From positions 143,361 through 207,360 of the forward strand of contig JARXAD010000001.1 in the NCBI GenBank assembly GCA_029866025.1: 64,000 nt of DNA, given 5' to 3'. Positions 32,083-49,887 of the stretch are shown in pieces. Positions within the stretch are counted from its first letter, which is position 1, and every line of letters begins with the position of its first letter. The notes beneath the pieces were generated by a model, which worked only from the letters and a program-made list of their open reading frames with translations, had not been told where the DNA came from and ran no database searches. Made by a program: the position numbers and the translations under genes. Source of the stretch: Vampirovibrionales bacterium. Lineage in GTDB: Bacteria; Cyanobacteriota; Vampirovibrionia; Vampirovibrionales; Vampirovibrionaceae.

Positions 32083-32556
32083 TTAACGGTACTTCACCAA
32101 AATTTCGTTACCGCTTACGTAGCCCAACTCGTTACGAATGAGGGCTTGCTGCCCCTGAGGGCTGCCATAATAGCGAATGGCACTGGCCAGCTGGTGTTGC
32201 TTGGTAGCGGCAGCATCATGGTACGCCACAATGTGAGAGGCTTCTTGGGATAAGAGTAAAATATCACTGAGATTCTCAATCAAAGCCCGGCTGAGTTGCA
32301 GAAGGCCGAACCCTAAAAAAATCAGCATGCTAACTTGACCGGCCCAAGCCAAGCGCGAAGGCTTGCGGGGCGATAATTGACGGACGCGCTGCTGGCGAGG
32401 ATCTTCTTGTGGCTGCGATTGCAGAGGCTCACTGTAAGGCAGTGGCGTCAATAAGGCGTCTTCTAATGGAGGAAAGGAGTGTGGCTGGGCAGCGTAAGCT
32501 GGCAACGCTGCTGCGTTGGTTCGGTATCGCTGTGATTGCCGTTGGGGCAATGCCAT
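32083..32556 (-). CDS. Septum formation initiator (FtsB/DivIC-like)
   Basis: Single TM, coiled coil, and C-terminal ALIRNELGYVSGNEILV resembling the AR..LG.V..GE motif. Confidence 0.65.
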   Translation of the reverse strand: MALPQRQSQRYRTNAAALPAYAAQPHSFPPLEDALLTPLPYSEPLQSQPQEDPRQQRVRQLSPRKPSRLAWAGQVSMLIFLGFGLLQLSRALIENLSDILLLSQEASHIVAYHDAAATKQHQLASAIRYYGSPQGQQALIRNELGYVSGNEILVKYR

Positions 32557-32826: not shown

Positions 32827-34653
32827 TTAAACAGCAGCCAATACAGGCTCTAACGGCAGTGCCGTGTGTTGAAATGCGTGAGGTGTGAGCACGCCGTACA
32901 AACGTTGATAGTATTCCAGCACCATGCGGTGGGTGTTGAATTGGCTTTCCGCCGTTTCTTTGGCACGCCATACCCACTGTTGCCACTGGGTGGTGTCATT
33001 CCAGTACGTGGGAATCACCATGGTTTCTAACACATTGCGTAACGCTTGGTAGTCGGCTTCATCTTGCTCTTCATCACTGGTGTAGGTTTTTTCACCGGGA
33101 TTGATAAGGAATCCGTTGATGCCATGGAAGGTACCTTCTACCGACCAGCCATCGTGGGTGGTGCAATGCAGCGAACCATTGAGGTTGGCCGACACGCCGG
33201 AGGTGCCACTGGCTTCCAGGGGGCGACGGGGCGTATTAAGCCACACATCGCTCATCAGCTTTAGTTCTTTGCTTAGGGCTAATTCGTAGTTGGGCAGCAC
33301 CGCCACGTTGGGGTGCTTTTCGGCAAAGCGCAACCACTCTTCAAAGCCTTCGCGGCCACTGGTATCACGGGGGTGAAATTTACCGGCAACGAGGATCTGG
33401 ATTTTCTTCTCGCCCAGCCACTGTTCAATGAGGGCTTGATCGCGCAATACCAAGGTAGAGCGCTTATAGCCTGTAAAACGGCGGGCCCATACCAATGTAA
33501 GTACGTTGGGATCTAGCTGTTTGCCAGTTTTTAAATTTACGTCTGCCAATAATTGGGATTTGATAGCTTGTTTGGCCTGCCAAAATTCTGCGGGGGTGGT
33601 GGCGGCCTTTAGGCGGGTATCTTGCCAATAAGGTTGGTTAACGCCATTGGTAATAGCGCTAATGGGGCAGCGCCCTTCCACGTGTTGCCACATGCGGTTG
33701 GCCACATCGCCATGCAACTGAGAGACTCCATTGGCCCAGCGAGACAGGCGTAAGGCGGCTTCGGTTAGGGAGAAGGGCTCCCCACCAATGCGGCGGGCTT
33801 CTTCCAGAGGCGTATCTACAAAAAATCCGGCTTCAGCCAACAAGTGGGCTTCATGCACTTCGTTACCAGCGGGTACAGGGGTGTGGGTGGTAAACACCAC
33901 CTGGTCGCGCACCACGGTGCGGTTGCCGCCATTCTCTTTCAGTAGTTCAAAGGCCAAGGGCAAGGCATGGCCTTCGTTCATGTGGTACACATCCACATCC
34001 CAACCCAAGGCACGCAGGGCTCGAACACCGCCAACGCCCAAAATAATTTCTTGAGCCACGCGGGCACGCTCGTCACCCCCGTACAAAATATCGCACCACT
34101 GTTGTTCTTCTTCTGTATTCTCTGGGGTGTTGGAAGATAGGAACAAGGTTGGAACTGTCCCGAAGGTGTTGGGTTCCAATAAGTAAATTTTTAGCACCAC
34201 GTCATTATTAAAGATGCGAACGGAAACGGTTTTGCCAGTATCGGTGAGGCAATTGAGGGAACGTTCCTGATAATCCACTTGAATGGTGTTGTTTTCAAAT
34301 CGTTGTTCGCCATACCCGTAGCGCCACAACAAGCTAATGGCCACCATGGGTACTCCCAATTCGTGGGCCGAACGCAAATGCCCCCCCGCCAAGTACCCCA
34401 ACCCACCCGAATACGTGTAGAGGGACTGATCAATGGCGAGCTCCATACAAAAATAGGCCACTCGTGGCATCCCACTGTTAAGGCCCGCTGGCATGGGATT
34501 GTTTAAAACAGCTGCTGTAGAGGAAGAAAAAGACATTGAGGAAGACACTCCATAAGACACAGTGGAAGATGAGTCCGACGAGGCAGAGGCCAAGGACGGT
34601 GGTAACGAAGGCGATGAGAGCCAGCTAAGAAAAAATGGGGGTTTAAATGTCAT
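32827..34653 (-). CDS. glgP: Short-type alpha-glucan phosphorylase (GT35) lacking the canonical PLP lysine
   Basis: VAYFCMELA, YSGGLG, HMNEGH, FTTHTP, ITNGV, ARRFTGYKR and EASGTSGVS. The true start is probably downstream (ATG 34536 or later). Confidence 0.9.
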   Translation of the reverse strand: MTFKPPFFLSWLSSPSLPPSLASASSDSSSTVSYGVSSSMSFSSSTAAVLNNPMPAGLNSGMPRVAYFCMELAIDQSLYTYSGGLGYLAGGHLRSAHELGVPMVAISLLWRYGYGEQRFENNTIQVDYQERSLNCLTDTGKTVSVRIFNNDVVLKIYLLEPNTFGTVPTLFLSSNTPENTEEEQQWCDILYGGDERARVAQEIILGVGGVRALRALGWDVDVYHMNEGHALPLAFELLKENGGNRTVVRDQVVFTTHTPVPAGNEVHEAHLLAEAGFFVDTPLEEARRIGGEPFSLTEAALRLSRWANGVSQLHGDVANRMWQHVEGRCPISAITNGVNQPYWQDTRLKAATTPAEFWQAKQAIKSQLLADVNLKTGKQLDPNVLTLVWARRFTGYKRSTLVLRDQALIEQWLGEKKIQILVAGKFHPRDTSGREGFEEWLRFAEKHPNVAVLPNYELALSKELKLMSDVWLNTPRRPLEASGTSGVSANLNGSLHCTTHDGWSVEGTFHGINGFLINPGEKTYTSDEEQDEADYQALRNVLETMVIPTYWNDTTQWQQWVWRAKETAESQFNTHRMVLEYYQRLYGVLTPHAFQHTALPLEPVLAAV

Positions 34654-34735
34654 AACCAGAAGAGACCATTCTATCGATAGGAAGAATCATTCTAAACAAG
34701 ATACCCCTCATAACGCCATCATGGCAAAAGGATTT

Positions 34736-36982
34736 TTAGTGAATTGCGGCTTCTTCCACCCAGTGTTGGGTTTCTAGCGATTTTGGGGTGTGGCGAAAAC
34801 GCTGGCATTGCTGAATCGCCAAGGTCATACCCTCCAACGCGCCCCACTGCTCAAGGGAGACCGGTAACTTTTGGCACCAATTCGGGTGTTCATCCACAGT
34901 GCCCGGCATATTGGCCTGAGAGGCTTCTCCCATCAGGTCTTCCAATTGCATCACCAACAACTGGCAAGGCGATTGGGCTAAAAACCCTTCGACTGCAGCC
35001 GCCAAGGCTGGGCTCCAAGTGTCTGGAACGCGGGTATCATTCCATAAGCCAGCCGCATGCAAGGCGTTGATGAGCTGTTGCTTTTCTTCTGGGCGACGGG
35101 CGTGATCACGTTGGTACATGTCTTCGCTGGGGTATAGATGAAGTCCTTGGCGCGTTTCAATATCGTGAGCGTTCCAAAAGCCTGCCAGTGTAGGTAAGTC
35201 ATGGGTGCTAAAGGCTGCCAGGGCTTGTCCAGAGTAATGCTGGGGTAATACAAATCTTTCATCGCTAGCCCGTTCAAATAGCATCAGTTTGTAGGATAAG
35301 ATGCCCCATCGCTCAAAGGCATGGCCAATTTCAGGGGGTACCGTGCCCAAATCTTCGCCAATAACCACACACTGGTTTCGGTGACTTTCCAGCGCCACCA
35401 GTGCCATCAATAGTTCTAGCGGGTATTGTACGTAGGTCCCTTCAACGCCGGTTTTCCCTTGGGGAATCCAGAACAGACGCATCAAACTCATGGCATGATC
35501 AATGCGAATGGCCCCCATCAAACTCATATTGGCTTTCAGTAGTTCAATAAAGGGCTCGTACTGTTGCTGGGCTAACACATCGGGCCGCCATGCTGGCAAG
35601 CCCCAGTTTTGGCCCAATAGGTTACAGGCATCAGGGGGGCAGCCCACCGACATCTCACGAGTAATCAATGACGGGTTTGCCCACACATCAAAGCCAGAAC
35701 TATCACTGCCCACGGCTAAATCGCCATAAATGCCCACACTCATACCGCTGGCGCGTGCTGCGTGTTGAGCAGCGTTGAGTTGTTCCCAGGCTAAAAATTG
35801 GGCGTATTCTGCAGCACGGATACGGGTGGCATAGCGTTCACCAAAGGCCTGTATTTCAGGCGTGTTGGGCGATTGATACCCTGGTGGCCATTGCCACCAG
35901 CAGGTAATGTGGCCGGCATCTGCATCCATCACCTCACTCAACACTTGAAATAAAGCAAACTGCCACAAGGATGGACCTTGCTCATTGCAAAAGGCTTCAA
36001 AAGCGGCATGACGCTGAGGATGCTGTGTTCGGTAGCTGGAAGACGTAAAGGTATCAAACAGAGCTACCAACAGACGTTGATGCCACGGCGTATACTGTTC
36101 GTAAGGCACACGATCACTGGATTGCCACTCCGCCCGTTGGGCCGAAGCTTGATTCCACACTGTTTGAGCCGCAATGCTATGACCCCATTCAGGGGTTTTG
36201 GTTGCATCAATATACAAGGTATTTAAAAAACGACGGCTGGACGGAGAATAAGGGCTAATATGACCAGGCCGAGAGGGGAACAAGGCGTGCATAGGGTTTA
36301 AGCCAATAAGATTCGCTCCACGTTGCCCTAGCCAGGTGGCGGCATTGGCCAAGTCGCCTAAAGTGCCTATGCCGGCATTGGTGGCCGACCGCTGTGCGTA
36401 CAGCTGCAAGGCCACACCCCAGGACCGAACCGGATTGGGGTTGTAGCACCGATTGGGAGTCCGAATCACTTTTGCCGTGGCTACACGATGTTCAGCAGCA
36501 AGGGTTAATTGATGATACCCCCATGGTAGCTCATGGCGCATGGCTGGGGGTAGTGTTAACTGGTGTTCCGCAATCACTTCCCCCGATGGTAAGGTATGGG
36601 TGGGCAAACCATCAAAATAGCTTACCGACCAATGACCTTGACATACAGGGCCACGTTCGGTTGTGAGAGACCAAGCCACAGTTGTACAGTCCTTGGGAAG
36701 GCGAACCGAGAGACACTCCGTGTCATCTCGCACGACCAGAACCGAAGGAGTGAGCTGTCCCCAGAGCGTATGCTGTTGGGCCTCCATGCAGCGGGTTGCT
36801 TCGTCATCACTGGTGGGGCAAATGCCCATCACTGCCAAAATGGCTTGAAGGGTTTCTAGTGGGGCAAATACAGCGTTACCAAACACATCGGTGTAATGGG
36901 TATCAATGCCATAGGCGGCTGCTAGCGCTTGCCATGCCTGGGTGGAAAGAGCGTTTGTAGGACAAAGAGTCGGGGAGGTCAT
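34736..36982 (-). CDS. malQ: 4-alpha-glucanotransferase (amylomaltase, GH77)
   Basis: SPYSPSSRRFLN, GDLAVG, GQNWG, catalytic RIDH, IGEDLG and STHDLPT, and NMPGT. Confidence 0.96.
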   Translation of the reverse strand: MTSPTLCPTNALSTQAWQALAAAYGIDTHYTDVFGNAVFAPLETLQAILAVMGICPTSDDEATRCMEAQQHTLWGQLTPSVLVVRDDTECLSVRLPKDCTTVAWSLTTERGPVCQGHWSVSYFDGLPTHTLPSGEVIAEHQLTLPPAMRHELPWGYHQLTLAAEHRVATAKVIRTPNRCYNPNPVRSWGVALQLYAQRSATNAGIGTLGDLANAATWLGQRGANLIGLNPMHALFPSRPGHISPYSPSSRRFLNTLYIDATKTPEWGHSIAAQTVWNQASAQRAEWQSSDRVPYEQYTPWHQRLLVALFDTFTSSSYRTQHPQRHAAFEAFCNEQGPSLWQFALFQVLSEVMDADAGHITCWWQWPPGYQSPNTPEIQAFGERYATRIRAAEYAQFLAWEQLNAAQHAARASGMSVGIYGDLAVGSDSSGFDVWANPSLITREMSVGCPPDACNLLGQNWGLPAWRPDVLAQQQYEPFIELLKANMSLMGAIRIDHAMSLMRLFWIPQGKTGVEGTYVQYPLELLMALVALESHRNQCVVIGEDLGTVPPEIGHAFERWGILSYKLMLFERASDERFVLPQHYSGQALAAFSTHDLPTLAGFWNAHDIETRQGLHLYPSEDMYQRDHARRPEEKQQLINALHAAGLWNDTRVPDTWSPALAAAVEGFLAQSPCQLLVMQLEDLMGEASQANMPGTVDEHPNWCQKLPVSLEQWGALEGMTLAIQQCQRFRHTPKSLETQHWVEEAAIH

Positions 36983-37114
36983 AACGTGCCTTTAGCGCAA
37001 CACAACAGCAATGATGCGGCCTTAAGAACAACGATTGGCCGCCCAACAACTGGCGTTTAGAGTATCACAAGGTACAACGGCGCGCAGGTGTGGCCAAAGC
37101 CAATCGCTTAGGCG

Positions 37115-39484
37115 TTATACTGCCGGATGAAAGCGTTCAAATTCAGCGCGCAGTTGATTCAACGACGGCCGCTCCCCTTTGGGTTTGTTTGACAACAAAT
37201 TGAGGAAGCTGGGGAAATAGTATTCAGCCAATATTTTGTAGGGGTCGTGTTCAATAGAAACGTATTTATATGCGTTCATTCTCATATTTAGTAAGGAATC
37301 TTTATCGGTTAACGCATTGGCACCCGGTTCGGTTGCTTTTTTGTAAGCCCTATCCATAAGTTGATAAAAAGATTGGTTCACTTCGTTGTATTCCGCTGTC
37401 TCTTGCTCGGTTAGGGTCGCTTCGCGATCGGGCAACGAATATTGTAAGGTTCCGGCGTTTAGCGCCAAGGTTTCTTTTTGGGTAAGGTCTAATAACTTGT
37501 TTAAAGAGCTACGATACACAGGCATGTTGCTCATTTTCATTAGCAATGCCGTTGGGCCGTATTCCCGCAAAATATAATCGGCCCTGTTCCCCACCGGTAA
37601 ATCTTTATCGGCCAATGACCACGCCAACCCATCCGTGGCAACAGCCAGCGGAATGGAAAACATTTTGAGTGCCTTTAATTGAGAAATGCCAAAGGGCTCA
37701 TACAAGCTGGGGTGAATAATAAAATCGGCTGCTGCATTCAATCGGTCATCGCCATTTTGAGTATACGGTGCCATCGGCATCCAAAAACGGCCTTTTATGG
37801 CAGGGTTACTGCTAAGTTTTTTAACCCATTCTGCTAACCCTGCAATACGACCACTTCCGGCAATGGCTAACTGGGCTTTGGGGTGCTGCAATAAAAACGC
37901 TTCCGCTTCTTTCATCAGCAAGTGAAAGCCTTTTTGGTACGGGTCTAAACGGGCTACCCACGTGTATAAAACAGCATCCGGATCTTCGTTTAAGTAGTTA
38001 TCAACAAACTTTTTTGGCCCCTTGTCTTGGTTATATGAAACCCCTGCTTTTTGCATGGCTTGAGTCCATCGCTGAAAAGCTACTTTATTGGCTTTTTTAA
38101 ACGCCAGTAATTCGGGAGCCATTTGTACGCGGATGGGAGACTCTTGCTCTTTAGGGCTGTTAACTAATTGCGTTAATAACGCCGCTTTAGAAAAAGGCTT
38201 AAATTCAATGGGGCCAACGCCCGCAACCGTTGGCTCGGTGGCATGTGTTGTTAGGTATTCTGCCCCTTCAGGGGTCATGCTTTCATCAATAAAATGGTGC
38301 ATATCGTAGGCATAATCTGCTTTAAACAGTTTTTTTAATCCTGATAAAAAAGCACCCCCGCGTGAAAAATTACTGCCGGTAATGGTGGATAGAAAATTAT
38401 GGTTGACAATGACGCTATCAGCCAAGCTTAAGCCAAGGGTAAAATATTCGGTAAAGGTTTTGGTTAACGATTGAAGCGCCGTAGGCAAAGGAAAAATACG
38501 AGACAGCCATGATGTGTATTGAGTATCGGAGTAGGTGTTGTGCAAATAAAACATAGATTTATAATTGCCCAATACTTTTTTTAGCGGCAATGCTAAAAAG
38601 GGCGCTGCTGGCCAGTCATTGGCAATGGCAATATCCACGCCGTTAGGAAAAGGAATTTGAAACGTAGATCCCTTTGGCAAGGGCTTTTGGCCCGTTAAGT
38701 AGGGCAACACTTTATAAATAGCATTGTTAAATAGAAGCAAACTATCTTTTTTAGTGCTTTGGGCCTTGGGGTGAGAATCTTCATGCTTTTTGTCAACGTC
38801 GTCAATTTTATAGGCGTAAAATACACTATCAAAACGACGCGTGTAAAAATCATTTCCCAAAGTATATTCATTGGGATTTGCCTTGGATTGCTTTAGGTTA
38901 AAAAAGGCTTTTTTGGCATATTTATCAACAAATTGCTCTTGACGCTCTTTGTTGGGAATCAGCCTAGAGACAGCGATTAAAAGGGTGTTCAGCCAATACC
39001 GATCAGGCACACCCACAGTAACGCCTGTATCCACCCAATCCGCTTTTTTGTTGTTATTACTGTCCTTTAAATATTTGCTGGTTTCAGGAGTAATGACCAC
39101 CACGTTGGCAGGGGTGTTTTTTACCATCGAGCGAACCACAAAACCGGTGACGTCACCCAGCCCACCCGTTTTATCCACAGCCCCTTCGGGAGACACCCAT
39201 AAAATTTGCAGAGGCTGGTTGGTGCGTTTGGGGTAGTGCTCGTTGATAAGTTTTTGCAGAGGCTGATAAATGGGGCTGTTCACGTTTTTAAGGGCGACGG
39301 TGGATGCAAAGCGAACGCCGGGAGAAATTTTTTGATGATGACTTAGTTGAATGGAGTCTTTTAGGGCTGAAGGCAAATTGGAGATACTGGAGCCAAAAGG
39401 CATGAGCCCAGCACCACTCACCCAAGAATGATGGGCCGATGTGACATGACGTTTCAGGGGTGGTGATGAGGTAACCCCGAGCAT
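37115..39484 (-). CDS. Divergent glycogen/starch synthase-like glycosyltransferase (GT5)
   Basis: KTGGLGDV, NDW, LHN, ARLDPYQKG and PSLYEPFGISQL; long N-terminal extension and inserts; AT-richer than its neighbours. Confidence 0.85.
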   Translation of the reverse strand: MLGVTSSPPLKRHVTSAHHSWVSGAGLMPFGSSISNLPSALKDSIQLSHHQKISPGVRFASTVALKNVNSPIYQPLQKLINEHYPKRTNQPLQILWVSPEGAVDKTGGLGDVTGFVVRSMVKNTPANVVVITPETSKYLKDSNNNKKADWVDTGVTVGVPDRYWLNTLLIAVSRLIPNKERQEQFVDKYAKKAFFNLKQSKANPNEYTLGNDFYTRRFDSVFYAYKIDDVDKKHEDSHPKAQSTKKDSLLLFNNAIYKVLPYLTGQKPLPKGSTFQIPFPNGVDIAIANDWPAAPFLALPLKKVLGNYKSMFYLHNTYSDTQYTSWLSRIFPLPTALQSLTKTFTEYFTLGLSLADSVIVNHNFLSTITGSNFSRGGAFLSGLKKLFKADYAYDMHHFIDESMTPEGAEYLTTHATEPTVAGVGPIEFKPFSKAALLTQLVNSPKEQESPIRVQMAPELLAFKKANKVAFQRWTQAMQKAGVSYNQDKGPKKFVDNYLNEDPDAVLYTWVARLDPYQKGFHLLMKEAEAFLLQHPKAQLAIAGSGRIAGLAEWVKKLSSNPAIKGRFWMPMAPYTQNGDDRLNAAADFIIHPSLYEPFGISQLKALKMFSIPLAVATDGLAWSLADKDLPVGNRADYILREYGPTALLMKMSNMPVYRSSLNKLLDLTQKETLALNAGTLQYSLPDREATLTEQETAEYNEVNQSFYQLMDRAYKKATEPGANALTDKDSLLNMRMNAYKYVSIEHDPYKILAEYYFPSFLNLLSNKPKGERPSLNQLRAEFERFHPAV

Positions 39485-39532
39485 ACAGTGGACTCTTTAC
39501 AACATAAGGAAGGAATGGAACGGAAATAGAAA

Positions 39533-40984: not shown

Positions 40985-41090
40985 GAGGAGTAACCTTTTT
41001 TAATCCAATGGGGGGCAGTATGCCGAGAGCCGTTTTATAGGAAGGGTAGCAATATTCCAACCATAGTAACGAGAGTACCTTAAATAACTT

Positions 41091-44000
41091 TTACCGTGTT
41101 TCACGCACCAGCAATACGCCTGCATCGGGTTTGGTGGCATCCATCATTAAGGGCTTCCCATTCAAGGCAACTAACTTTCCTTTGCTCACCACAAAGGTGT
41201 TTTGGGTGCCTTCTTGGCGATACCGAGTGCCATCGGGCATCCCCAACGTCGAAATATCGGGGGTGTAGGCAAAAGGTTTGCGAGGGGTTCGGGTAATTGG
41301 GTAGGTGGCGTTTTTGCCCAATGGGTTGGCTTTGGCAGCGTCTTGGTTGAACAACTCACCGGTGGCGGGGGCAATGGGTAGCAGGCCAATGATTTGCTGA
41401 TTGCCGGACTGAGGACCACCATCCCAAACGCTCATAAACACGCCGTTGGTGTCGTCTTGGCTGACGGGCTGCCAAAATCCGTTAAAGGCTTTTTCGTGAT
41501 CTCGTCGCCACTGGCTTTGGGTGCGCAGGGTGCTTTGAGCTGTGAGAAGCCACGGGGCCGGTGCCTTGTTATAGGGCGTTACCAAGGCGTCTCGGTTTTG
41601 TTGATGACGGTTATCGGTGCTTTCGCCTCCCGCTAACGCCATAAAGTCATGGCCATACAAAGCAGCATTGCCACCGCTGAGTAGCTGGGCAAACACCATC
41701 TGGGCTTGCTTTGCCATCACAGGCTTCATCAACACTTCCCACAACGGCGCTTTATGGGCGGCGTGCTTGGCCATTTCGGGTTGATTAAAAATGGCATCCA
41801 GAACTTTGTTGGGGCTTAGGTGAGCCAGCAACGTGGGCTCAATAGCCATCAACTCGGCTTCGGTTTGTTCTAACGCGTGGTAGAAGGCCTGTTTAAAGCC
41901 AGTATTGTTGTTACCGTATGCTTCTATGGCGTTTGCCAAGGCAGCACGGGTGGCCCACACTTCGCCCAAGGGTAGGTAATGAACCAAAATACTTTCCAAT
42001 GCGTTTTGAGCTGGCAATGTGGCAAACGGTTTTAACAGTTCCGGCAAAACCTTGCCGTCGTGCTGCAAGGTCCGTACCATCTCAGGAATGGCCCTGGCAA
42101 TGGCCACACGCATGTCTCGTTGGTTCATAGCTTCTTTAGGTAGATTTTCGGCATCCCCCACAAATTTTTTCTGGGGGGCTTCCATGTAATCTCGTATTAG
42201 CGCTGATAACTCTTTCGTCAATTCCGGCGTTTGGGTATGGAGGTAGGTATTAAGGTCGTTCAGCGCTTTGCCTACATCGGCGATGCCAGCCGACTTTAAG
42301 GTGGCTCTGGCCCCTGCTAAATCGGCTTTGGTTTGCAGCGCTTCCAGTACATTGTTGGTGTCATCCAGTAGCCCTCGCATGCCATACGATGCCATAGACG
42401 CAATATTGGGGTTGCGCACCAAGGCGTGGTTGACAGTGGCATAATCATGGCTGGCCAGTAGCGACAATGCCATGCGGCTAACCCATGCTGGAAACATCTG
42501 TAAAAAGCCTGCCAGTTTATCGTTGGCAAACTGTTGCGGCCCCAACATCCAGTCGCCATGTTCCCACGGTTTGGCAGGGGCGTTTACCAAGGCGGGAATG
42601 CCGCTAAACCAGTGACTCATGTTGGGCATGCTGGTAAAAACCGATTGCCCCCACTGCTTGAGAGGCTCAAAAAACAGTTGATAGGCTTGATGCACAGCAT
42701 TTTTGCTGGCGCCCAACTTTTCAGGGTCTAGCTCGGCCATAATCACGGTTTTGGGGAACACAGCCCGAACCCCAGAGAGCAGCTTGGCCCACGTATCGCG
42801 TACTGTTCGCATTTCTTTCACAAAAATGGCGTCTCGTACGTTGCCCTGGCTCGCATTGCGTATAGCAGCGGTGTTGGCGATGTCTACGGCTGCATCCAAG
42901 CGCCAATTGAGACCCACTTCGCCTTGGGTCATGAGGTGTCGAGCGACGGTGGCTGCTTCCACAGTGGTGTGGGCCAGTGTTTTTTCTGCCAAACGGGCCA
43001 GTTCTGTTGTGTTTAGGCTGCCAACTTGCCGCTGCATAGCCTTACGAAAGGTGGATGCTGCCGTGGCAGGATCCCAGCGCATGGCGGCACCCAATTGGCG
43101 ATCCATGCCTGCCCCGAGGGCGTTGATGTCGTCTGATGTTTGCCCACTGAGCAATTGACGCCACACAACGGGGGCCAACTGAATCAACACTGCATCCCGC
43201 AACGAAGGCTCTAATAGCTTTAGTTGACTTTCTGGACTGAGTTGGCGGAAGACCCCTTCTAGCGCTCGTCCCAGTTGGCTATTGAGACTTTGTTGACCCA
43301 GAGTAATGTCTAGCTTTTTGGCTAAGGGTTGGGTAGCTTTGGATTGGTTGAGTAGCCAGCGAAGCGGCTTGCTGGCCCAATACACCGGTTGTAATGACCC
43401 ATGGTGGCCTAAAATTTGGTCTTCAAACTTAGGCCAACCCAAGGTGTGCTTAATAAAGGTGAGATCGTGGGCGGGATCATCGCTGTGAAGATTGAGCGCC
43501 ACCGGCGGCAGTAATTGAGAGAGGCGCTGCCCCAGCGCGAGTGATGATTCCCAACGTTGCTGCCGTGGGGTAATGGTTTGGGGTAATGAGAGGTTGGCTA
43601 AGCGACCGGCCAACTGTTGAGTGGCCTTTAACTTTTCCAAAGTGGTTGCCCAGTTACCTTCATAGTGCTGGGTTAGTAGTTCGGTTAAAGGCTGAAAGAG
43701 CCACTCTGAATCCGTTCGCTGGGTCCAATAGGTCAGGGCTTGTTGGGCTTGGCCTTGTACCGCGGGATTGGCTAAGTTCAATCGTTTGGCGGGAATTTTC
43801 CCATCCCAGCCTTCACCGGAGTCGTCTTCGTCAGGGCGTCCCAAACGGAAACCCGGCCAATCCACCATGGCTTGCTTGTATTCCACCGAGTCCGGCGATT
43901 TTCCCTGGAGGATCTGAAGTTTTTTGGAAACATCTTTAGCATTGGCAATGGGGAAGGTGTAGTTGTACACCGAGCCGCTGGCAGATAACCATGGGGTGGT

Positions 44001-45059
44001 GTCCTTCCCTGCCTCTCGAATGGGATCAAACAGCTGAATGGCCGTTGGACGGTTGGGGTTGTAGGCTGGCTGTCCAGCAGGGGGATTAGGGCTGTTAATG
44101 AGGCGAACGCCCACACGGTCCCAGTTTACATCCAGGCCGTTGGGCTTAATAGGCAACACGCCTAGTACCAGCTTGCGATCCGTAAATACACTTGGGAACC
44201 ACTTGTTTAGCAAGGCGCCTTGGGTGTTGCGATCAAACTGGTACCAATTCCAGTAGGGCGAGCGGGCTCCATGGAGCAGCAAGCTTTGGTACTGGGGGCT
44301 CATCATGCCGTGGTTGACAAACGCCCCATCAAAATAAAGCTTTATCCCATCTTGCAGGCTGTACTGCATCAGGCGTTTTAGGTCTTTATCTTGCCATACT
44401 GAGGCAAAAGGATCCGCCGTCCAGTAGTGGTGGGGCGACACCCAGTCCCCTGTGAGTGGCGACATCATAACCCCGCCCAGGGCTGGGGTTCGCTTGCCAG
44501 TTTTGGGGTCTATTAAAAATTGATCGATGCGCTGAAAAGCCCCTTCAGCCCCTCCACCGTGGGTAACATACGAATGGGTAAGACTAGTGGATAAGGGTTT
44601 GGTTGGGTTGCCTTTGGCATCCAGGGTAACAGCCGCATCTGGGTAAAGGTACAGCAAGGTGCCAACCGATTGGGTGGGGGCAAGGTTGGGGCGTGCCACA
44701 TTCCACTGTTGGCCATTCACCACGCGGGTCTCGGTGGCATCTAGGCGCTGTTGGCCATCCACCACAAAGCGGTACAGCACTTCTTGGGGTGTTGATGACG
44801 CTTTGGGTCTGAGGGTGACCGTATCGGATAGTGGCTGAGACGCCTCCCAGTAAAGACCTTTATTAATTAACGTTTGGTTTGTTAATGCTTGCTGAGCGTC
44901 GTTTTTAAACTCAACCGCTACGGAACCGGCTTGGGTATGGCCTTCTAAGTATGGGGTGGGGGCCAATTGCCCTGAATTCCAGTAATAACCACCAAAACGG
45001 ACACCCAATGGTGTGGATGCAAAGCCTTGAGAGGTCGTTGTTGGGTGATAAGCCATCAT
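41091..45059 (-). CDS. Very large GH13-like alpha-glucan enzyme with N-terminal CBM48-like segment
   Basis: YRFVVDG; conserved regions DGAFVNHG, WRLDAA, IMAEL and ASHD. Likely start is ATG 45059/45056 (the ORF track starts at 45173). Confidence 0.78.
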   Translation of the reverse strand: MMAYHPTTTSQGFASTPLGVRFGGYYWNSGQLAPTPYLEGHTQAGSVAVEFKNDAQQALTNQTLINKGLYWEASQPLSDTVTLRPKASSTPQEVLYRFVVDGQQRLDATETRVVNGQQWNVARPNLAPTQSVGTLLYLYPDAAVTLDAKGNPTKPLSTSLTHSYVTHGGGAEGAFQRIDQFLIDPKTGKRTPALGGVMMSPLTGDWVSPHHYWTADPFASVWQDKDLKRLMQYSLQDGIKLYFDGAFVNHGMMSPQYQSLLLHGARSPYWNWYQFDRNTQGALLNKWFPSVFTDRKLVLGVLPIKPNGLDVNWDRVGVRLINSPNPPAGQPAYNPNRPTAIQLFDPIREAGKDTTPWLSASGSVYNYTFPIANAKDVSKKLQILQGKSPDSVEYKQAMVDWPGFRLGRPDEDDSGEGWDGKIPAKRLNLANPAVQGQAQQALTYWTQRTDSEWLFQPLTELLTQHYEGNWATTLEKLKATQQLAGRLANLSLPQTITPRQQRWESSLALGQRLSQLLPPVALNLHSDDPAHDLTFIKHTLGWPKFEDQILGHHGSLQPVYWASKPLRWLLNQSKATQPLAKKLDITLGQQSLNSQLGRALEGVFRQLSPESQLKLLEPSLRDAVLIQLAPVVWRQLLSGQTSDDINALGAGMDRQLGAAMRWDPATAASTFRKAMQRQVGSLNTTELARLAEKTLAHTTVEAATVARHLMTQGEVGLNWRLDAAVDIANTAAIRNASQGNVRDAIFVKEMRTVRDTWAKLLSGVRAVFPKTVIMAELDPEKLGASKNAVHQAYQLFFEPLKQWGQSVFTSMPNMSHWFSGIPALVNAPAKPWEHGDWMLGPQQFANDKLAGFLQMFPAWVSRMALSLLASHDYATVNHALVRNPNIASMASYGMRGLLDDTNNVLEALQTKADLAGARATLKSAGIADVGKALNDLNTYLHTQTPELTKELSALIRDYMEAPQKKFVGDAENLPKEAMNQRDMRVAIARAIPEMVRTLQHDGKVLPELLKPFATLPAQNALESILVHYLPLGEVWATRAALANAIEAYGNNNTGFKQAFYHALEQTEAELMAIEPTLLAHLSPNKVLDAIFNQPEMAKHAAHKAPLWEVLMKPVMAKQAQMVFAQLLSGGNAALYGHDFMALAGGESTDNRHQQNRDALVTPYNKAPAPWLLTAQSTLRTQSQWRRDHEKAFNGFWQPVSQDDTNGVFMSVWDGGPQSGNQQIIGLLPIAPATGELFNQDAAKANPLGKNATYPITRTPRKPFAYTPDISTLGMPDGTRYRQEGTQNTFVVSKGKLVALNGKPLMMDATKPDAGVLLVRETR

Positions 45060-45324
45060 AAGGAACTGTGCTGGAGACGAATAAGCCCGTGGTAAAAACC
45101 AATGCAATGAGAAAAGAGAAAAGAAAAGTGGATAAGCCGTAGGAATTAAAAAAAGGATGGATTCTGGATGCATGCTGTACCGCTAAGGAGATTAAAATCA
45201 AGCGGGCGGAGCAACATTTAAGCTTTGTAACGAAGAGGGCTGAACAGGCAATTTTTACCTTGGAGGATCCTCTTAGTAATAGCAACAACGAGGGTCAAGA
45301 ATCCAAATTGCTTGATTCTAAAAA

Positions 45325-45346
45325 TTTGTTGCTGGTTTGCAACAAA
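45325..45346. promoter_or_regulatory. Palindromic operator candidate in the divergent GH13 promoter region
   Basis: TTTGTTGC-N6-GCAACAAA, a perfect 8-bp inverted repeat. Confidence 0.45.
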
Positions 45347-45454
45347 AGTCACACTCCCTCCAACAGCTCCTTTTAAATACCCCCTAGCCAAACGGCTATG
45401 TTTCGCCATCATGAGTCATAGGCTTATCGACTCAACTTATCCACACGCTTCATA

Positions 45455-46642
45455 ATGACCCCTGTAACAGCCATACCGGCTTACTTTTCGGCAGCAGCTC
45501 CTTCGGTGCCCCCTTGGCTTCGGCAACCGGCTTCTGCCAGCGTGGCAACGTCTTTACCACCTATTCCACAAGCTCCCAACCCTTTGTACTTTTATGATGT
45601 CAGTCTGAAGCCGGAACGTTTGATTACTCTCAATCCGCTTCAAAAAGTCAAACTTGGGTTTCATCAAACCTTTGTGGAGCTTCCTAAATCACTGGCCAAA
45701 GGCTTTTGGGGCGACAGTCGCTACCGATTTGATGATTTCTTGCGGTTGGGGCAAATCCCCTATGTGCTGGGTGGGGCAACCTTGGCCGGTATTTTTGCCT
45801 TAGGGGGGCACAAACTAACCATTGCACGCCAATTGGCTGCTATTGGGTTGTATTATGCAGGCCAACTAGCCGGTAGTTTGGGTGTGAATACGGCGGTGAA
45901 GTTATACACGGGTATTGACTCCGATTTGCGATACACCGCTGCCGATGGCCAAATTAAGCGCGTGTTTACGGATCCCACCTTCTCGCGGTACGACTTATTG
46001 CCCCCCGAATTTTACGTAGCCAAGGCCGCCCAATTGGGCATCCCCCCCACGGTGGCGGATCCAGAAGGGGAGGTGAAAAATACCATTGCCAATATGCTCC
46101 CCAAAATTCGTTTGTCTAAGGCCCTCATGGGAAATGCCCTGGCGGCGGTAGGTGCGGGCTTGATTGCTCGAAGCGATGTGTGGCTGAAGCTAAGCCAGCG
46201 AACGCCCGGTTTGTCGGCCCCACAGCAATTGGCTCAGTGGGCTAGGGATGTGTTGGGGATTTTGGGTCATCAGTGGTTTGCTCCCCTCAGCCATCACCCC
46301 AGTGGACTGCCAGCAGGGCGAATTATAGCCTTGCGCAGTGTTGCTTCGGTGGCTTTGGTAGGGGCTTTTGGTTATGGAGCCTGGCTTTTGGCTACTCTTA
46401 AGCCTAAAAAAACCTTCCAGCCTGCCCATGTGGAATACTTACGCAACATTAATGACCTGTTTGGCCCAACTAGCCAGCAAAACCAGCCCGACTACCTCAT
46501 GCGAAATGCAGCCATTCAGGCATTCCAATCCTATTTAATGCGAACCCGAGAACAAATGACGCCAGGCTTGTATGATGGTGTTGTATTGGCTCCCATGGCT
46601 TCCGTAACTCCTAACGTCAAGGCCAAGGAGGCAACTCCATGA
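45455..46642 (+). CDS. Hypothetical membrane protein, paralogous to the N-terminal half of 46639-49887
   Basis: Hydrophobic helices; shared ungapped block VKxxTG…Y…FxD…LxP…LxxP; ATGA overlap with the next gene. Confidence 0.8.
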   Translation: MTPVTAIPAYFSAAAPSVPPWLRQPASASVATSLPPIPQAPNPLYFYDVSLKPERLITLNPLQKVKLGFHQTFVELPKSLAKGFWGDSRYRFDDFLRLGQIPYVLGGATLAGIFALGGHKLTIARQLAAIGLYYAGQLAGSLGVNTAVKLYTGIDSDLRYTAADGQIKRVFTDPTFSRYDLLPPEFYVAKAAQLGIPPTVADPEGEVKNTIANMLPKIRLSKALMGNALAAVGAGLIARSDVWLKLSQRTPGLSAPQQLAQWARDVLGILGHQWFAPLSHHPSGLPAGRIIALRSVASVALVGAFGYGAWLLATLKPKKTFQPAHVEYLRNINDLFGPTSQQNQPDYLMRNAAIQAFQSYLMRTREQMTPGLYDGVVLAPMASVTPNVKAKEATP

Positions 46643-49600
46643 GCCTGATGACACCGTTACCGCCTGCTAGTGTAGGATCCGCACCCAAAGCCTCTCATAC
46701 GCCAGTCCCCCTGGATGCGCAACGGGTGCCGTCTCCTGGCGTGTTTCATCGTTCTCTCAAGCCATCTGAACGGGAACAGCCTGTCCTAAATAGCTTGCTG
46801 TATGCCATGAAGACCCCCGATGCCACCGTGAATGCTCACCAGTTGGGCCGTGTGGAAGGTGGCTTAAAAATGGCGGGCGGTGCCATTATTGCCTTGCTAT
46901 CGTTATTGGGGCTGCCCAATGCCAGCTTAGGTGTGGCCGAAGTGCTTGGGTTTGGCGGCTTTTTTGGCACCATGGCCGTTATGCCCAAAGCAGTGCAGTG
47001 GTTGGTAAAGCAAAAAACGGGTCTTAACCAAAACGCCTATTACCTCAGTACCCAACGCGATCGTCGTTGGCTGTTCCAAGATGTGGGCTATTTACCCTTT
47101 CATCTCATTCCTGAGGCTGAGATTCAAAAAGTAGGCGACCGTTTAGAGGTGCCCCAAAATCTGCCCAACCGTCGGGGTGTTATTGAAGATCGCATTCGTC
47201 AAATTACGGCACAATCGCAAACCCTGTGGATGCTATTGGCAGGCCCTGCCACGCCTTTAGTGGCTTCGGGCTTGGCCCATGTGCTAGAGCAACCCGGTTT
47301 GGCTGCGGTTAACCAACTTAAGCGTTGGACGTACCAAGGATTGTTGTCTGCAGGGATTGGTAATAAAAAGGCTCTGTTGCAAGGCCTCTTGAATACCTTT
47401 GTCGGCGATTCGCCCTCCTCAGATCTCTCTCGCTGGTGGCCCAAGGTTCAACAGCGCTTGGCCAATGAGAGTGGGTTGACTCACTTTGTTGCTCAACGCA
47501 GTAAAGAAGTAGGAATTAAAGCCAGTAAGCTGACGGATGTTCAGTGGGCACAATGGTTGGAAGACTTTTTAGCTACAGAGATGGAGACAGGTCATCCTCA
47601 ACAGGCGGCAGCGGCTTCTCAACGCTGGGATCGCTTGATTGCCAGCTTAAAAACCTTCCAAGAGCAGGTGCAAGATATTTGGGGCGGTAAGGCCCAAGGG
47701 CTTTTGGCTAAATATACGGGGGGCCATGAAGCCCCAAGCCAGCTTAGTGAGCTAAGCGCCCCCGGTAAAGTATTGTCTTCGGCAGAGCACGCTAAAAAAC
47801 AATGGTTGGAAACCTTGTTGCAACTTCGAAAGGAGTTGGCAGATGGCAGCATTCCTCGCCTGGACAATGCCAACGGGTTACTCAATCAAGTGGACCGCTT
47901 GGAAGAGTGCTTGCTGGATAGTACTCAAGGGGCCAATAAAGACTTGCGGCGCCACCAGCCTTTAACCCGAGAAGCCTTACGAGATTTGTTGTACGGCAAC
48001 AACGCCGGTCGTATGGCAGAAGCGCTCGTGTCTGGGGATAGTGATACGGTGCAGCGTGTGTTGGTGGGTGATTTTGAACGTCAAATTGGCGGTAAGAATG
48101 GATTCTTTAAATGGTTGGGGCATTTGGGCCGCCGAGAATTTCAAAAGGCCGAATGGACCTTAGGCCCGACATTGGCTTCTCAGTTTAAAGTCGGTGCCAA
48201 ACAAGCCCTTACTGTGGGTGGTTGGCGGCGTGGGGTGTTGGGCGTGTTGGGGGGTGGCTTGGCTGTTGCCAGTGCACTGTATTACGCCTTGGTATTGGGT
48301 AAAACCCGAAAACCACCAGCCAGTGAGTTTTCCAATGCGGAGCAGATGATCCGTAAATACAATCAACGGGGTGAGTTTGAAACCTTGCAGCGCAGCATTG
48401 CGGTGCTTAAAGCCCAGCGAGCTTCGTTGGCCCCACGCAACCCCTTGTTTGAGCAGCCGGGCTATTTAAAATCCTTGTTCCATCAGCGCCAGGCTGTTAC
48501 GTACGCACTCAACATTCGAACCTATGGCGCCCAAGATACCAACCGAGACGGTCTCATTACGCCGTATCAATTTGAGCAAGGTACTTTTTTAAGCAGCATT
48601 GCTCGCCTAGACGAGCTAAAAGCCTTGGGTGTGAATAATATTCATTTGCTGCCCATTAATCCCATTGGTACGTTAAAACGCAAAGGGGTGGCCGGTAGTA
48701 TTTATGCGGTAGCCGATTTGCACACTTTAAATCCGCAGCTGGCGGATCCGCGTAGCCCTCTCAATGTGTATGAACAGGCGCGCTTATTTGTTCAAGAATG
48801 TCACAAGCGTGGCATTCAAGTCATGATCGATATTCCCAGTATTGCCAGTATTGATTTGGCCATTACTCGTCCTGACCTGATTGCGGTGGATGAAGCAGGG
48901 CGAACCCAAACCCCCACCACTTGGACCGATGGGGTTGTATTTAAAAACGATGCCAAATTGCTGGAGTACTACCAAGGCTTTTTTGACTTAATGGTGAATG
49001 ATTTGGGCGTGGATGGCTTTAGGGCAGACGTGGCTCGCTTCCGTCCCGATTGGTTCTGGAAGCATTTCATCAACAAATACCCGGATAAAGCCTGGGTGGC
49101 CGAAACCTACACGCCGGAAGACGCCTCGCCCTTGGATCGGATTCCGCGGGATAATCCCCATGATCAGTTGGGGTATGGCTTTGATGCCATCTACGGACAG
49201 CTGCATATCTTCCATCAACTGAAGAGTGGCCGTGACTTTACCAACTACTTAACGGGGGAACTGCCTAGTATTACCCATGCTGGGGCGGCTCAAGCAGGGG
49301 TCTCGCCCTTAACAAAATCATCGTGGGCGTCGTACCTTACCCATGACGATGAAACCACACCCATGAACCATGGGGGTGTGGAACATGCTTTAATGGTGGC
49401 CAATCTGACGGCCCTAACCCCTAACACCACGCCGTATATTTTGGATGGTCAGCAAACGGGTTACGACAAACGTATTGATATTTTTAACTACACGCCAGCT
49501 CATGTGGGTGAGCATCCTGAAATAGGCACGGCCCTTGCCAAAGCTTTGGCTGTGCGTAAGGCCTATGCTGATGTCTTTGCCAATGTCTCTGTGCCCAATG

Positions 49601-49887
49601 TATTGCCGATTACCGGCGATGTTACCCACCAGTTGTTTGCGTGGACATTGGAGCACAATGGCCGCAAGCTGTTACTGATTGGCAACAAAACCCCCAACGC
49701 TCGTACCGAAGGGATGATTCAATTGCCACCGGGCTTGTTGCCACCGGGCAAGCCTCTCTCCAACCTGTTGTTGGAATACGGTCGTCAGTGTCGCTTAGCA
49801 CCCACTCCACAAGGCCTGTCTGTTAGCTTAGGGCCGTCTCGCATTCTGTTGTTTGATGTGTCGTTGTCGACAGCGAAGGCTGTTTAA
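46639..49887 (+). CDS. Fusion of an unknown membrane domain and a C-terminal GH13 alpha-amylase domain
   Basis: C-terminal half has LDELKALGVNNIHLLPINP, GSIYAVAD, DGFRADVA (D797), AETY (E822) and THDD (D903). Confidence 0.88.
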   Translation: MSLMTPLPPASVGSAPKASHTPVPLDAQRVPSPGVFHRSLKPSEREQPVLNSLLYAMKTPDATVNAHQLGRVEGGLKMAGGAIIALLSLLGLPNASLGVAEVLGFGGFFGTMAVMPKAVQWLVKQKTGLNQNAYYLSTQRDRRWLFQDVGYLPFHLIPEAEIQKVGDRLEVPQNLPNRRGVIEDRIRQITAQSQTLWMLLAGPATPLVASGLAHVLEQPGLAAVNQLKRWTYQGLLSAGIGNKKALLQGLLNTFVGDSPSSDLSRWWPKVQQRLANESGLTHFVAQRSKEVGIKASKLTDVQWAQWLEDFLATEMETGHPQQAAAASQRWDRLIASLKTFQEQVQDIWGGKAQGLLAKYTGGHEAPSQLSELSAPGKVLSSAEHAKKQWLETLLQLRKELADGSIPRLDNANGLLNQVDRLEECLLDSTQGANKDLRRHQPLTREALRDLLYGNNAGRMAEALVSGDSDTVQRVLVGDFERQIGGKNGFFKWLGHLGRREFQKAEWTLGPTLASQFKVGAKQALTVGGWRRGVLGVLGGGLAVASALYYALVLGKTRKPPASEFSNAEQMIRKYNQRGEFETLQRSIAVLKAQRASLAPRNPLFEQPGYLKSLFHQRQAVTYALNIRTYGAQDTNRDGLITPYQFEQGTFLSSIARLDELKALGVNNIHLLPINPIGTLKRKGVAGSIYAVADLHTLNPQLADPRSPLNVYEQARLFVQECHKRGIQVMIDIPSIASIDLAITRPDLIAVDEAGRTQTPTTWTDGVVFKNDAKLLEYYQGFFDLMVNDLGVDGFRADVARFRPDWFWKHFINKYPDKAWVAETYTPEDASPLDRIPRDNPHDQLGYGFDAIYGQLHIFHQLKSGRDFTNYLTGELPSITHAGAAQAGVSPLTKSSWASYLTHDDETTPMNHGGVEHALMVANLTALTPNTTPYILDGQQTGYDKRIDIFNYTPAHVGEHPEIGTALAKALAVRKAYADVFANVSVPNVLPITGDVTHQLFAWTLEHNGRKLLLIGNKTPNARTEGMIQLPPGLLPPGKPLSNLLLEYGRQCRLAPTPQGLSVSLGPSRILLFDVSLSTAKAV

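Follow-up and report, generated by a model that had tools for sequence, protein, structure and literature searches.

The 64,000-nucleotide stretch of a Vampirovibrionales genome analyzed here (the window; contig C9:143361-207360) carries, at positions 32827-49887, seven adjacent genes whose content marks them as a genuine alpha-1,4-glucan cluster; their host is a small-genome bacterium of the Vampirovibrionaceae (f1 in our sample, the family of this genome and of Vampirovibrio chlorellavorus). Within it, comparison with relatives delineates a lineage-specific unit whose four members are present or absent as a set: two paralogous helical proteins, which we call memA (395 residues) and memB (1082 residues, including its fused enzyme domain), a glycoside hydrolase family 13 (GH13) enzyme resembling subfamily GH13_48, and a giant second GH13 protein, "big" (1360 residues as called). 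The genome (handle G000) comprises 2.19 Mb in 13 contigs and is 94% complete; it belongs to the class Vampirovibrionia, as the initial annotation of the stretch had supposed it might, and the nearest named homologue of big (48% identity) comes from a Vampirovibrionales metagenome-assembled genome (MAG).

Our preferred reading, which we hold with about as much doubt as belief, is that these genes specify a membrane-associated glucan unit consisting of memA and memB, a GH13_48-like enzyme at the cytoplasmic face, and big, joined in f1 by a transporter of the major facilitator superfamily (MFS) and a glycosyltransferase family 5 (GT5) protein, and in this genome also by the 4-alpha-glucanotransferase MalQ and a GT35-like protein. 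The two paralogous helical proteins, probably embedded in the inner membrane, would form a hetero-oligomer there that keeps the GH13_48-like enzyme on the cytoplasmic side, for cutting or transferring short maltosyl or malto-oligosaccharide units. The enzyme would have an obligatory partner in big and, in f1, would also work with a sucrose/maltose-type MFS importer and the divergent GT5 protein; the unit and its partners would build alpha-glucosides taken up by the cell into an intracellular pool of alpha-glucan and release them from it again. In this reduced genome, the cluster would also have taken in MalQ and the sole GT35-like gene.

All seven open reading frames (ORFs) lie where they were first annotated, in two divergent groups: five on the minus strand (32827-34653, 34736-36982, 37115-39484, 39533-40984, and 41091-45173, with gaps of 48-132 bases) and two on the plus strand, memA at 45455..46642 and memB at 46639-49887. 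The memA and memB frames overlap by the tetranucleotide ATGA, and AAGGAGG stands upstream of the memB start. Unless another search is named, family assignments come from Pfam and NCBIfam profile scans of the locus proteins, applying each model's own cut-off.

Comparison with related genomes separates a conserved core from its surroundings. The same order contributed 20 loci from 17 genomes (21 loci when G000 is counted); in all 20, memA, the N-terminal part of memB, and GH13 follow one another in overlapping or abutting frames, and the same three parts occur in order in 11 of 12 loci from families f4 and f6, surveyed by single-sequence tblastn; at the twelfth (L043), tblastn saw only the GH13 part, and memA was placed by a profile match. 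Linkage of the pair to glucan enzymes in other genomes, set beforehand as the test on which the proposal hinged, was thus found throughout, with a GH13 gene or domain following the pair in 32 of 32 loci (20 from the same order and 12 from f4/f6, the L043 pair by profile). The two are fused in 7 of 21 loci (G000, L017, L018, L020, L022, L026, and L033) and encoded separately in the other 14, a pattern of fusion and fission which implies that the enzyme works attached to memB. Judged by gene order, then, the conserved core is memA, memB, and GH13, in that order, and not the 17-kb locus that had been proposed as a unit: MalQ stands beside the module in 1 of the 20 loci (L018) and a phosphorylase-like gene in 0 of the 20, and the 17-kb arrangement is, by the same comparison, particular to this genome among related loci.

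The fourth protein of the unit is tied to the core by co-occurrence. Among 40 relatives (which are kin, so that counts overstate independence), 26 have both big and memB, 13 have neither, 1 (a 56%-complete genome) has memB only, and none has big only. Ten of the 20 loci, all from f1, have big divergent next to memA, and in 9 of the 20 the MFS gene stands behind it; in f4/f6, big lies downstream of GH13 in 2 of the 12 loci. The GT5-like gene shows a looser association with memB in the same 40 relatives (23 with both, 12 with neither, 4 with memB only, and 1 with the GT5-like gene only). In G000, and in 10 of the 24 relatives with such a gene, no more than approximately 2.5 kb separates it from the module; it lies convergent and downstream of GH13 in six named loci, including that of V. 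chlorellavorus NCIMB 11383, and was found in no genome outside its own order.

The memA family is small and patchy within the class. A memA-family profile searched against 1.84 billion representative proteins yielded 351 matches at E ≤ 0.001 and 139 at E ≤ 1e-10, and in the ESM Atlas memA recovers only unnamed hypothetical clusters labeled Melainabacteria or Cyanobacteriota; a corresponding search with memB residues 40-560 gave no usable match among named ESM Atlas clusters. By family, the profile matched genomes in f1 (11 of 14), f2 (1 of 1), f3 (5 of 17), f46 (2 of 2), and f4 (31 of 32), and matched none in f47 (0/30), f48 (0/30), f49 (0/9), f5 (0/12), f50 (0/2), or f51 (0/1). In a phylum-wide sample it matched 165 of 169 f4 genomes and both of the f6 genomes, and 0 of roughly 220 genomes outside the class. 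We take f4, a distant family of low GC content, to correspond to the Gastranaerophilales of animal guts. The GH13 alignment, run against named genomes, recovered 32 Vampirovibrionia loci that include V. chlorellavorus NCIMB 11383 and two V. chlorellavorus MAGs; 10 of the 32 are titled Gastranaerophilales, and the names of several refer to deer, rumen, or other material from animals. The memB N-terminal part stands upstream of GH13 in 30 of these 32 loci, one of the exceptions having no upstream DNA. Three Granulicella loci returned by the same scan match just a generic N-terminal GH13 piece. V. chlorellavorus itself carries the full cluster (L065), and the module of NCIMB 11383 is of the split form.

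The coupled pair had been annotated as paralogous members of an unrecognized family, one of them bearing a GH13 domain, and each element of this description stands. By BLASTP the resemblance is weak (E 2e-4, 25% identity over 160 residues). Profile comparison makes the paralogy clear: hhalign joins the memA profile (21 sequences) and the profile of the memB N-terminal part (18 sequences) at 98.6% probability, E 9e-16, over 132 columns, which span a tight two-helix Gly/Ala-rich hairpin, a loop of ~75 residues containing a beta-hairpin, and a third hydrophobic helix. In both proteins a fourth, more hydrophobic helix closes the conserved part. MemA consists of a Pro-rich N-terminus, the hairpin of two Gly/Ala-rich hydrophobic helices, the conserved ~75-residue loop, and the third and fourth hydrophobic helices. 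The N-terminal part of memB (residues 1-609; 46639..48465, plus strand; a separate gene in 14 of 21 loci) repeats the memA core and continues into a helical region of ~300 residues, which separates the third helix from the fourth (the last hydrophobic helix, at ~531-551), followed by a linker; in f4/f6 relatives the N-terminal part is longer as a whole, about 780-980 residues. AlphaFold2 models memA with a mean predicted local distance difference test (pLDDT) score of 76 and a predicted template modeling (pTM) score of 0.66, and full-length memB with a pLDDT of 79 and a pTM of 0.57, the N-terminal part being helical at a pLDDT of about 75-88.

Neither protein could be attached to a described family. 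MemA matches no Pfam or NCBIfam family, and its model matches no PDB fold, the best hit having E 0.045 and a template modeling (TM) score below 0.2; nuclear-receptor ligand domains and BAR domains, which appeared as candidate fold relatives, were dismissed as chance-level (E ≥ 0.045, TM below 0.2). The memB N-terminal profile has no PDB sequence match, and eight further memB N-terminal proteins match no Pfam family, giving just two sub-threshold matches of coiled-coil type. A search of 14 own-order loci for a peptide motif shared by the N-termini of memA, memB, and GH13 recovered only general Pro-richness. A reading of the pair as secreted proteins with a bilobed hydrophobic domain, like the chlamydial Inc proteins, was dropped given the Vampirovibrionia lineage. 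Extended N-termini of 40-120 residues, Ser/Pro-rich or otherwise disordered and absent from characterized homologues, occur on many proteins of the locus, namely the GT35-like protein (~60 residues), the GT5-like protein (~90 residues), memA, and memB, as well as on the free GH13 enzymes of relatives.

The C-terminal domain of memB (residues about 610-1082; 48466..49887, plus strand) is a recognizable if divergent GH13 enzyme. The sole Pfam match of memB is to the Alpha-amylase model at 17.8 bits, under its cut-off of 22, and the C-terminal 495 residues match the PDB entries 4gkl (AmyB of Thermotoga neapolitana, the type enzyme of GH13_48; E 3.7e-20), 3dhu (an amylase of Lactobacillus plantarum; E 1e-15), and 1gju (a Thermotoga maltosyltransferase). 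A Foldseek search with the memB model likewise ranks 4gkl first (TM normalized to the target, 0.76-0.80; ~21% identity), with GlgE and Thermotoga maltosyltransferase at a TM of about 0.53 and at least 500 PDB GH13 chains at E ≤ 0.001; the model comprises a (beta/alpha)8 barrel with domains B and C at a pLDDT mostly of 85-97 over residues 570-1075. The alignment with 4gkl pairs the motifs G-F-R-x-D-V-A and A-E-T, and the putative catalytic residues in G000 are the nucleophile D797, the acid/base E822, and the transition-state Asp D903. All 33 homologues retain the Asp nucleophile and the Glu acid/base, and the region IV H-D pair is present in 30, the three exceptions being second copies in genomes with two modules. 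Regions I and II are altered in every member: in each of the 33, region I reads D-[VIL]-P-S-[CIVA]-A-S with no terminal Asn-His, and the last residue of region II is A, S, or F in place of the His typical of GH13.

The paper that established GH13_48 (PMC11239784) gives as its marks NH in region I, a Cys just ahead of the nucleophile, L-[DN] as the end of region V, and G-Q as the end of region VII; the Cys is said to occur in 81% of GH13_48 and GH13_49 sequences, Ala, Val, or Leu taking its place in the others. At this position G000 has Ala, most homologues have Val or Ala, and 2 of 33 have Cys; region VII reads D-G-Q in G000 and L033 and G-[FYMLV] in the other homologues. With some marks in common and the NH missing, the memB domain appears related to GH13_48, and we do not call it a member.

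Big (41091..45173, minus strand) has no Pfam match and was assigned to GH13 by a profile of 11 homologues, which aligns in four collinear pieces with neopullulanase/maltogenic amylases (1sma, E 1.2e-16). The motifs D-G-A-F-V-N, N-W-R-x-D, A-E-L, and S-H-D are kept, and D282-G-A-F-V-N287, R758/D760, E814, and H909/D910 are invariant in 11 of 11 homologues. Big is built of a short beta-rich N-terminal region and a barrel with very large helical insertions, ~265 residues between strand 4 and the helix that precedes it and a further ~250 from region IV to region VII. As called, the start (45173) is probably too early, because the 11 homologues begin, without a signal peptide, at a conserved R-F-S-G-Y motif; the true start would lie ~38 codons downstream, near 45059, and the called one adds ~38 spurious residues. 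The components are not ordinary members of characterized subfamilies, in keeping with the initial annotation, which called several of them atypical.

The sidedness of the unit can be approached through the split loci. Of their 14 free-standing GH13 partners, 13 show neither a signal peptide nor a hydrophobic N-terminus (as judged by N-terminal hydrophobicity), starting instead with a Pro/Tyr/Gln-rich N-terminus of 60-130 residues, and because these partners lack signal peptides, the memB GH13 enzyme is probably cytoplasmic. The memB N-terminal proteins of split loci end within ~20 residues past the fourth helix; if both the fused and the split form work, what follows this helix would have to lie in the compartment of a protein that is not exported, the cytoplasm. 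A topology of four (or two) helices, with the two termini in the cytoplasm and the long middle region of memB on the outer side of the membrane, fits these features. Pfam scans of the locus and of the eight memB N-terminal proteins found no lipobox, sorting domain, or carbohydrate-binding surface domain, and no outer-membrane, periplasmic, or binding partner was seen among the neighbors of the core. Of the membrane-tethered harvesting or remodeling machine that had been proposed at the outset, the tethering is probable, and the external harvesting finds no support, for want of export signals.

Several observations weigh against the membrane-associated unit as we picture it. On a position-independent hydrophobicity scale, where lower values are more hydrophobic and the MFS helices and windows of the soluble MalQ serve as references, segments 1-3 of memA and memB have medians of 4-6.5, within the range of MalQ's most hydrophobic windows (5.0), and segment 4 alone (2.2 in memB, 3.9 in memA) approaches the MFS helices (lowest, -1.4). 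The positive-inside charge count is ambiguous and gives no clear topology, and the label of membrane protein for the pair seems less certain than had first been stated. Complex prediction with memB residues 40-600 and memA residues 45-345 scored 0.32, against 0.00 for the best of three controls, with at least 71% contact agreement among runs and a partner pLDDT of at least 65, which lends weak support to a memA/memB hetero-oligomer; in calibration, 58 of 80 solved complexes came up to the mark, as did 2 of 110 mismatched pairs, and scores of 0.60 or under account for only 7 of the 80 but for both mismatches; this calibration is rough, as our own alignments were used. With NH missing from region I and His from region II, the reaction of the memB enzyme may differ from the hydrolysis of starch-like substrates. 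The GT35-like protein lacks the lysine expected to bind pyridoxal phosphate (PLP), and the catabolic role first assigned to the set of MFS, MalQ, and phosphorylase genes, all of which are present, is therefore uncertain. Outside f1, most genes flanking the core have housekeeping roles (BacA, PTPS, SIS-CBS, and RNA polymerase, with GH57 once and GH35 once), so that linkage to transport and synthesis genes would be lineage-specific. Finally, many relatives without the core keep MalQ (present in 39 of 41 genomes) and a branching enzyme, and the core would thus be dispensable for basic glucan metabolism.

Some of these same features suit other explanations, none of which we consider likely. The marginal hydrophobicity of segments 1-3 would be natural if memA and memB were a soluble or peripheral scaffold that organizes glucan granules or an enzyme complex, its helices buried in an oligomer and at most the last of them dipping into the membrane; long continuous helices, the large helical middle region, the disordered Pro-rich N-termini on all three partners (typical of scaffolding or linker regions), and the near-perfect co-occurrence with a second cytoplasmic GH13 protein, big, point the same way. 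The last segment, though, is clearly hydrophobic in many members (a score of 2 or less in 44% of memB N-terminal sequences), and the first two segments make up a tight Gly/Ala-rich hairpin of the kind found in membrane proteins, which leaves the scaffold rather improbable in our estimation. An unlikely but more radical possibility is glucan translocation, with memA and memB as an inner-membrane channel and the tethered GH13 as its motor or gate, either pulling in malto-oligosaccharides by cutting them at the cytoplasmic mouth or exporting an alpha-glucan made by the GT5-like protein to the envelope. Such a pair would supply eight helices rich in small residues, is always coupled to an enzyme and tolerates its fusion, co-occurs with and is often adjacent to a glucan synthase-like gene, would place a memB region of about 300 to 600 residues in the periplasm under the four-helix topology, and matches no known transporter family. 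Yet its helices are almost devoid of the conserved polar or charged residues that a sugar path needs, the invariant residues being for the most part Gly, Pro, Ala, Tyr, and Trp; the hydrophobicity of three of the four segments is just marginal; an ordinary MFS transporter is already linked in f1; and the core has no outer-membrane or periplasmic partner beside it. The more specific proposal that memA and memB form an inner-membrane glucan conduit in which the tethered GH13 couples passage, as uptake or export, to bond cleavage or transfer strikes us as slightly less probable again.

The explanation offered at the outset, a surface-exposed tethered machine with which a predator or epibiont harvests the starch of algal prey, fares worst and seems to us very improbable. 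It draws on the kinship with V. chlorellavorus, a predator of the same family that has the full cluster, and on the 2015 genome paper on that species, one passage of which, naming no genes, anticipates that starch and glycogen of the prey would be broken down by its glycoside hydrolases (PMC4451040). The core is nevertheless present in 165 of 169 sampled genomes of f4, the presumed gut lineage, which tells against the predatory or epibiotic interpretation. Neither the free GH13 enzymes (13 of 14) nor big has a signal peptide, the nearest characterized relatives are intracellular, and surface-anchoring or surface-binding domains were not found in the scans described above.

Of the remaining genes, the one at 32827..34653 (minus strand, 608 residues) encodes a GT35-like "alpha-glucan phosphorylase" that scores 464 bits with TIGR02094 (cut-off, 192), matches PDB 9l6i at E 4.8e-70, and is the sole GT35 match in the genome. 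Where 9l6i has EASGTSGEKA, it has EASGTSGVSA, with Ser at the position of the expected lysine; from glycogen phosphorylase, we take the Lys of E-A-S-G-T-x-x-x-K to be the residue that binds PLP. The Ser recurs in 6 of 6 orthologues from five relatives (L051-L056; 49-60% identity), and the GT35-like proteins appear to be a conserved short clade of 540-610 residues that may include no normal phosphorylase. MalQ (34736..36982, minus strand, 748 residues) is a long 4-alpha-glucanotransferase of the E. coli type and the single GH77 match in the genome (PF02446, 378 bits, plus MalQ_N; TIGR00217, 464 bits, over the cut-off). In three relatives (G003:C34, G031:C53, and G010:C1), MalQ lies within open frames of ~1730 codons, the size of the model NF011077 for a fusion of MalQ with TreY (malto-oligosyltrehalose synthase), and the MalQ of the window also matches NF011077 over the first 722 positions of that model.

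The gene at 37115..39484 (minus strand, 789 residues) encodes a divergent GT5 protein resembling glycogen/starch synthases (GT5, 32.5 bits; GT1, 30 bits). The protein is extended at its N-terminus, and an insertion interrupts the first Rossmann half. It carries K-T-G-G-L and E-P-F-G, which we take to represent the K-x-G-G-L and E-x-F-G motifs of GT5 glycogen/starch synthases. At 92 bits it is under the cut-off of 328 for the GlgA model TIGR02095, and it is the best glgA-like match in the genome; starch and glycogen synthases in the PDB align to it only at residues 498-636. The MFS gene (39533..40984, minus strand, 483 residues) encodes a transporter of the sucrose/H+ symporter (GPH/SUT) type with multiple strongly hydrophobic helices, which passes the MFS_1 cut-off (70 bits) and, at 138 bits, does not reach that of the sucrose/H+ symporter model TIGR01301 (511).

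As first annotated, the locus contains no glgC, glgB, or glgX in scans of its proteins, and it is not a classical glg operon; the genome has glgB (859 bits) and glgX (1014 bits) at other sites. Genome-wide, no glgC reaches its cut-off (best, 78 bits), and neither a canonical glgA nor a GH57 gene was found in G000. The sole MalQ, sole GT35, and sole GT5-like genes of the genome are all within the locus; with MalQ and the only GT35-like gene there and GlgC and GlgA undetected, the locus, by this inventory, carries most of the alpha-glucan metabolism of the cell. A 462-residue sugar-phosphate nucleotidyltransferase outside it (G000:C9:16097-17485; L049:298-1686) scores ~80 bits with the models for GlgC and ManC (mannose-1-phosphate guanylyltransferase), far below their cut-offs; it is the only candidate for making the glucosyl donor of the GT5-like synthase, and it too has an extended N-terminus, of 119 residues.

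The inventories of relatives differ from this one. Across 41 genomes, a canonical glgA over the cut-off occurs in 26 and a glgC match in 26, G000 and its nearest relative, G001, being without both; f1 relatives mostly have glgC (21 of 24), canonical glgA, and GH57. A role for the GT5-like protein as a general replacement of GlgA and GlgC was rejected, most relatives carrying both of the latter as well. The branching enzymes GH13 glgB (13 of 41) and GH57 (30 of 41) replace each other across the order, with glgB in G000, G001, and 10 of 11 f3 genomes and GH57 in 23 of 24 f1 and 5 of 5 f2 genomes but in neither G000 nor G001. A correlation of the module with branching enzyme was considered and rejected, as neither glgB nor GH57 tracks it; with the branching enzymes untied to the module and MalQ nearly universal, roles in endogenous and exogenous glucan are inseparable by this means. 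The 17-kb cluster looks, from these comparisons, like a consolidation in a reduced genome and not an ancestral arrangement.

The intergenic region between the divergent gene groups (45174..45454) has 13 promoter-like matches on its two strands against 17.7 expected from shuffles, not above chance, and a terminator scan gave 20 matches against 24.9 in shuffles, fewer than chance. A search of sequencing runs with 41091-49887 returned one DNA run (0.16 share of words) and no RNA run. The cluster is preceded by RecJ, RuvB, and two small ORFs, the latter lying between RuvB and the glucan genes (31258-32007, minus strand, 249 residues; 32083-32556, minus strand, 157 residues) and matching no Pfam family. 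It is followed directly 3' of the module by a low-complexity protein of 1124 residues (50313-53687, plus strand) with no Pfam or NCBIfam match, which has a Gly/Ala-rich hydrophobic stretch at ~276-500, Ala/Lys/Pro-rich low-complexity regions, and the tandem repeat V-V-N-G-K-V-V-T-D-A-N-G-N-V-V-K-D-G-W-G-D-P-V-R-K-R-P-I-I-D-R-I.

The Vampirovibrionia are the closest nonphotosynthetic relatives of the cyanobacteria and include both a predator that destroys Chlorella crops and common inhabitants of the gut. That two proteins of no recognized fold and two aberrant GH13 enzymes are retained or lost en bloc in several of their families makes the module worth solving: it would show how these bacteria handle starch-like carbon, likely the main food in both habitats, and would test whether an enzyme of the amylase family can run from a membrane scaffold on the cytoplasmic side. 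It would also add a new GH13 clade with altered conserved regions. The locus of this genome, which adds MalQ and the sole GT35-like and GT5-like genes, is the most complete version seen and offers a good template for reconstitution. The conduit explanation, if true, would represent a principle of alpha-glucan transport not described in bacteria. Searches of the literature on Melainabacteria and Vampirovibrio, which covered passages of PMC3787301 and PMC4451040, turned up no description of the module; the supplementary tables of carbohydrate-active enzymes (CAZymes) of PMC4451040 may list its genes.

Among characterized enzymes, the memB GH13 domain most resembles AmyB (4gkl) and 3dhu, with which it shares the same three-domain size (about 420-480 residues), the G-x-R-x-D-V-A of region II, and the absence of a signal peptide; it differs from them in being fused to, or placed directly after, a protein of no recognized family with hydrophobic helices. 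AmyB of T. neapolitana is reportedly an intracellular exo-acting amylase, as the title of the paper on it has it. The domain is further set apart by region I (D-x-P-S-C/I-A-S), by Val or Ala before the nucleophile, and by an identity to 4gkl of only ~21%. Big is comparable to the neopullulanase/maltogenic amylase/cyclomaltodextrinase type (1sma and 1j0h; presumably GH13_20) in its catalytic Asp/Glu/Asp, its D-x-x-x-N in region I, its cytoplasmic location, and its extra N-terminal domain, and is unlike it in having 1300-1500 residues against about 590, huge insertions, and no Pfam model at threshold.

As a whole, the locus recalls the E. coli maltose/maltodextrin system in that a long MalQ with MalQ_N lies on one strand beside a GT35 gene and a sugar transporter, although the transporter is a sucrose-type MFS protein in place of the MalEFGK ATP-binding cassette (ABC) transporter and the GT35 protein is of the short TIGR02094 kind with Ser; the GT5 synthase-like gene and the two unusual GH13 genes go beyond that system. 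With the classical glgBXCAP operon it has alpha-1,4/1,6-glucan in common, whereas here glgB and glgX lie elsewhere and glgC and a canonical glgA were not detected in the genome. GH13 enzymes at the cell envelope are familiar from SusG of Bacteroides and the periplasmic MalS of E. coli, which are exported, as a lipoprotein or by a signal peptide, and face outward. The placement of a GH13 enzyme at an envelope layer would be common to those systems and the one described here, in which the enzyme has no export signal and its anchor would be a paralogous pair from a new protein family.

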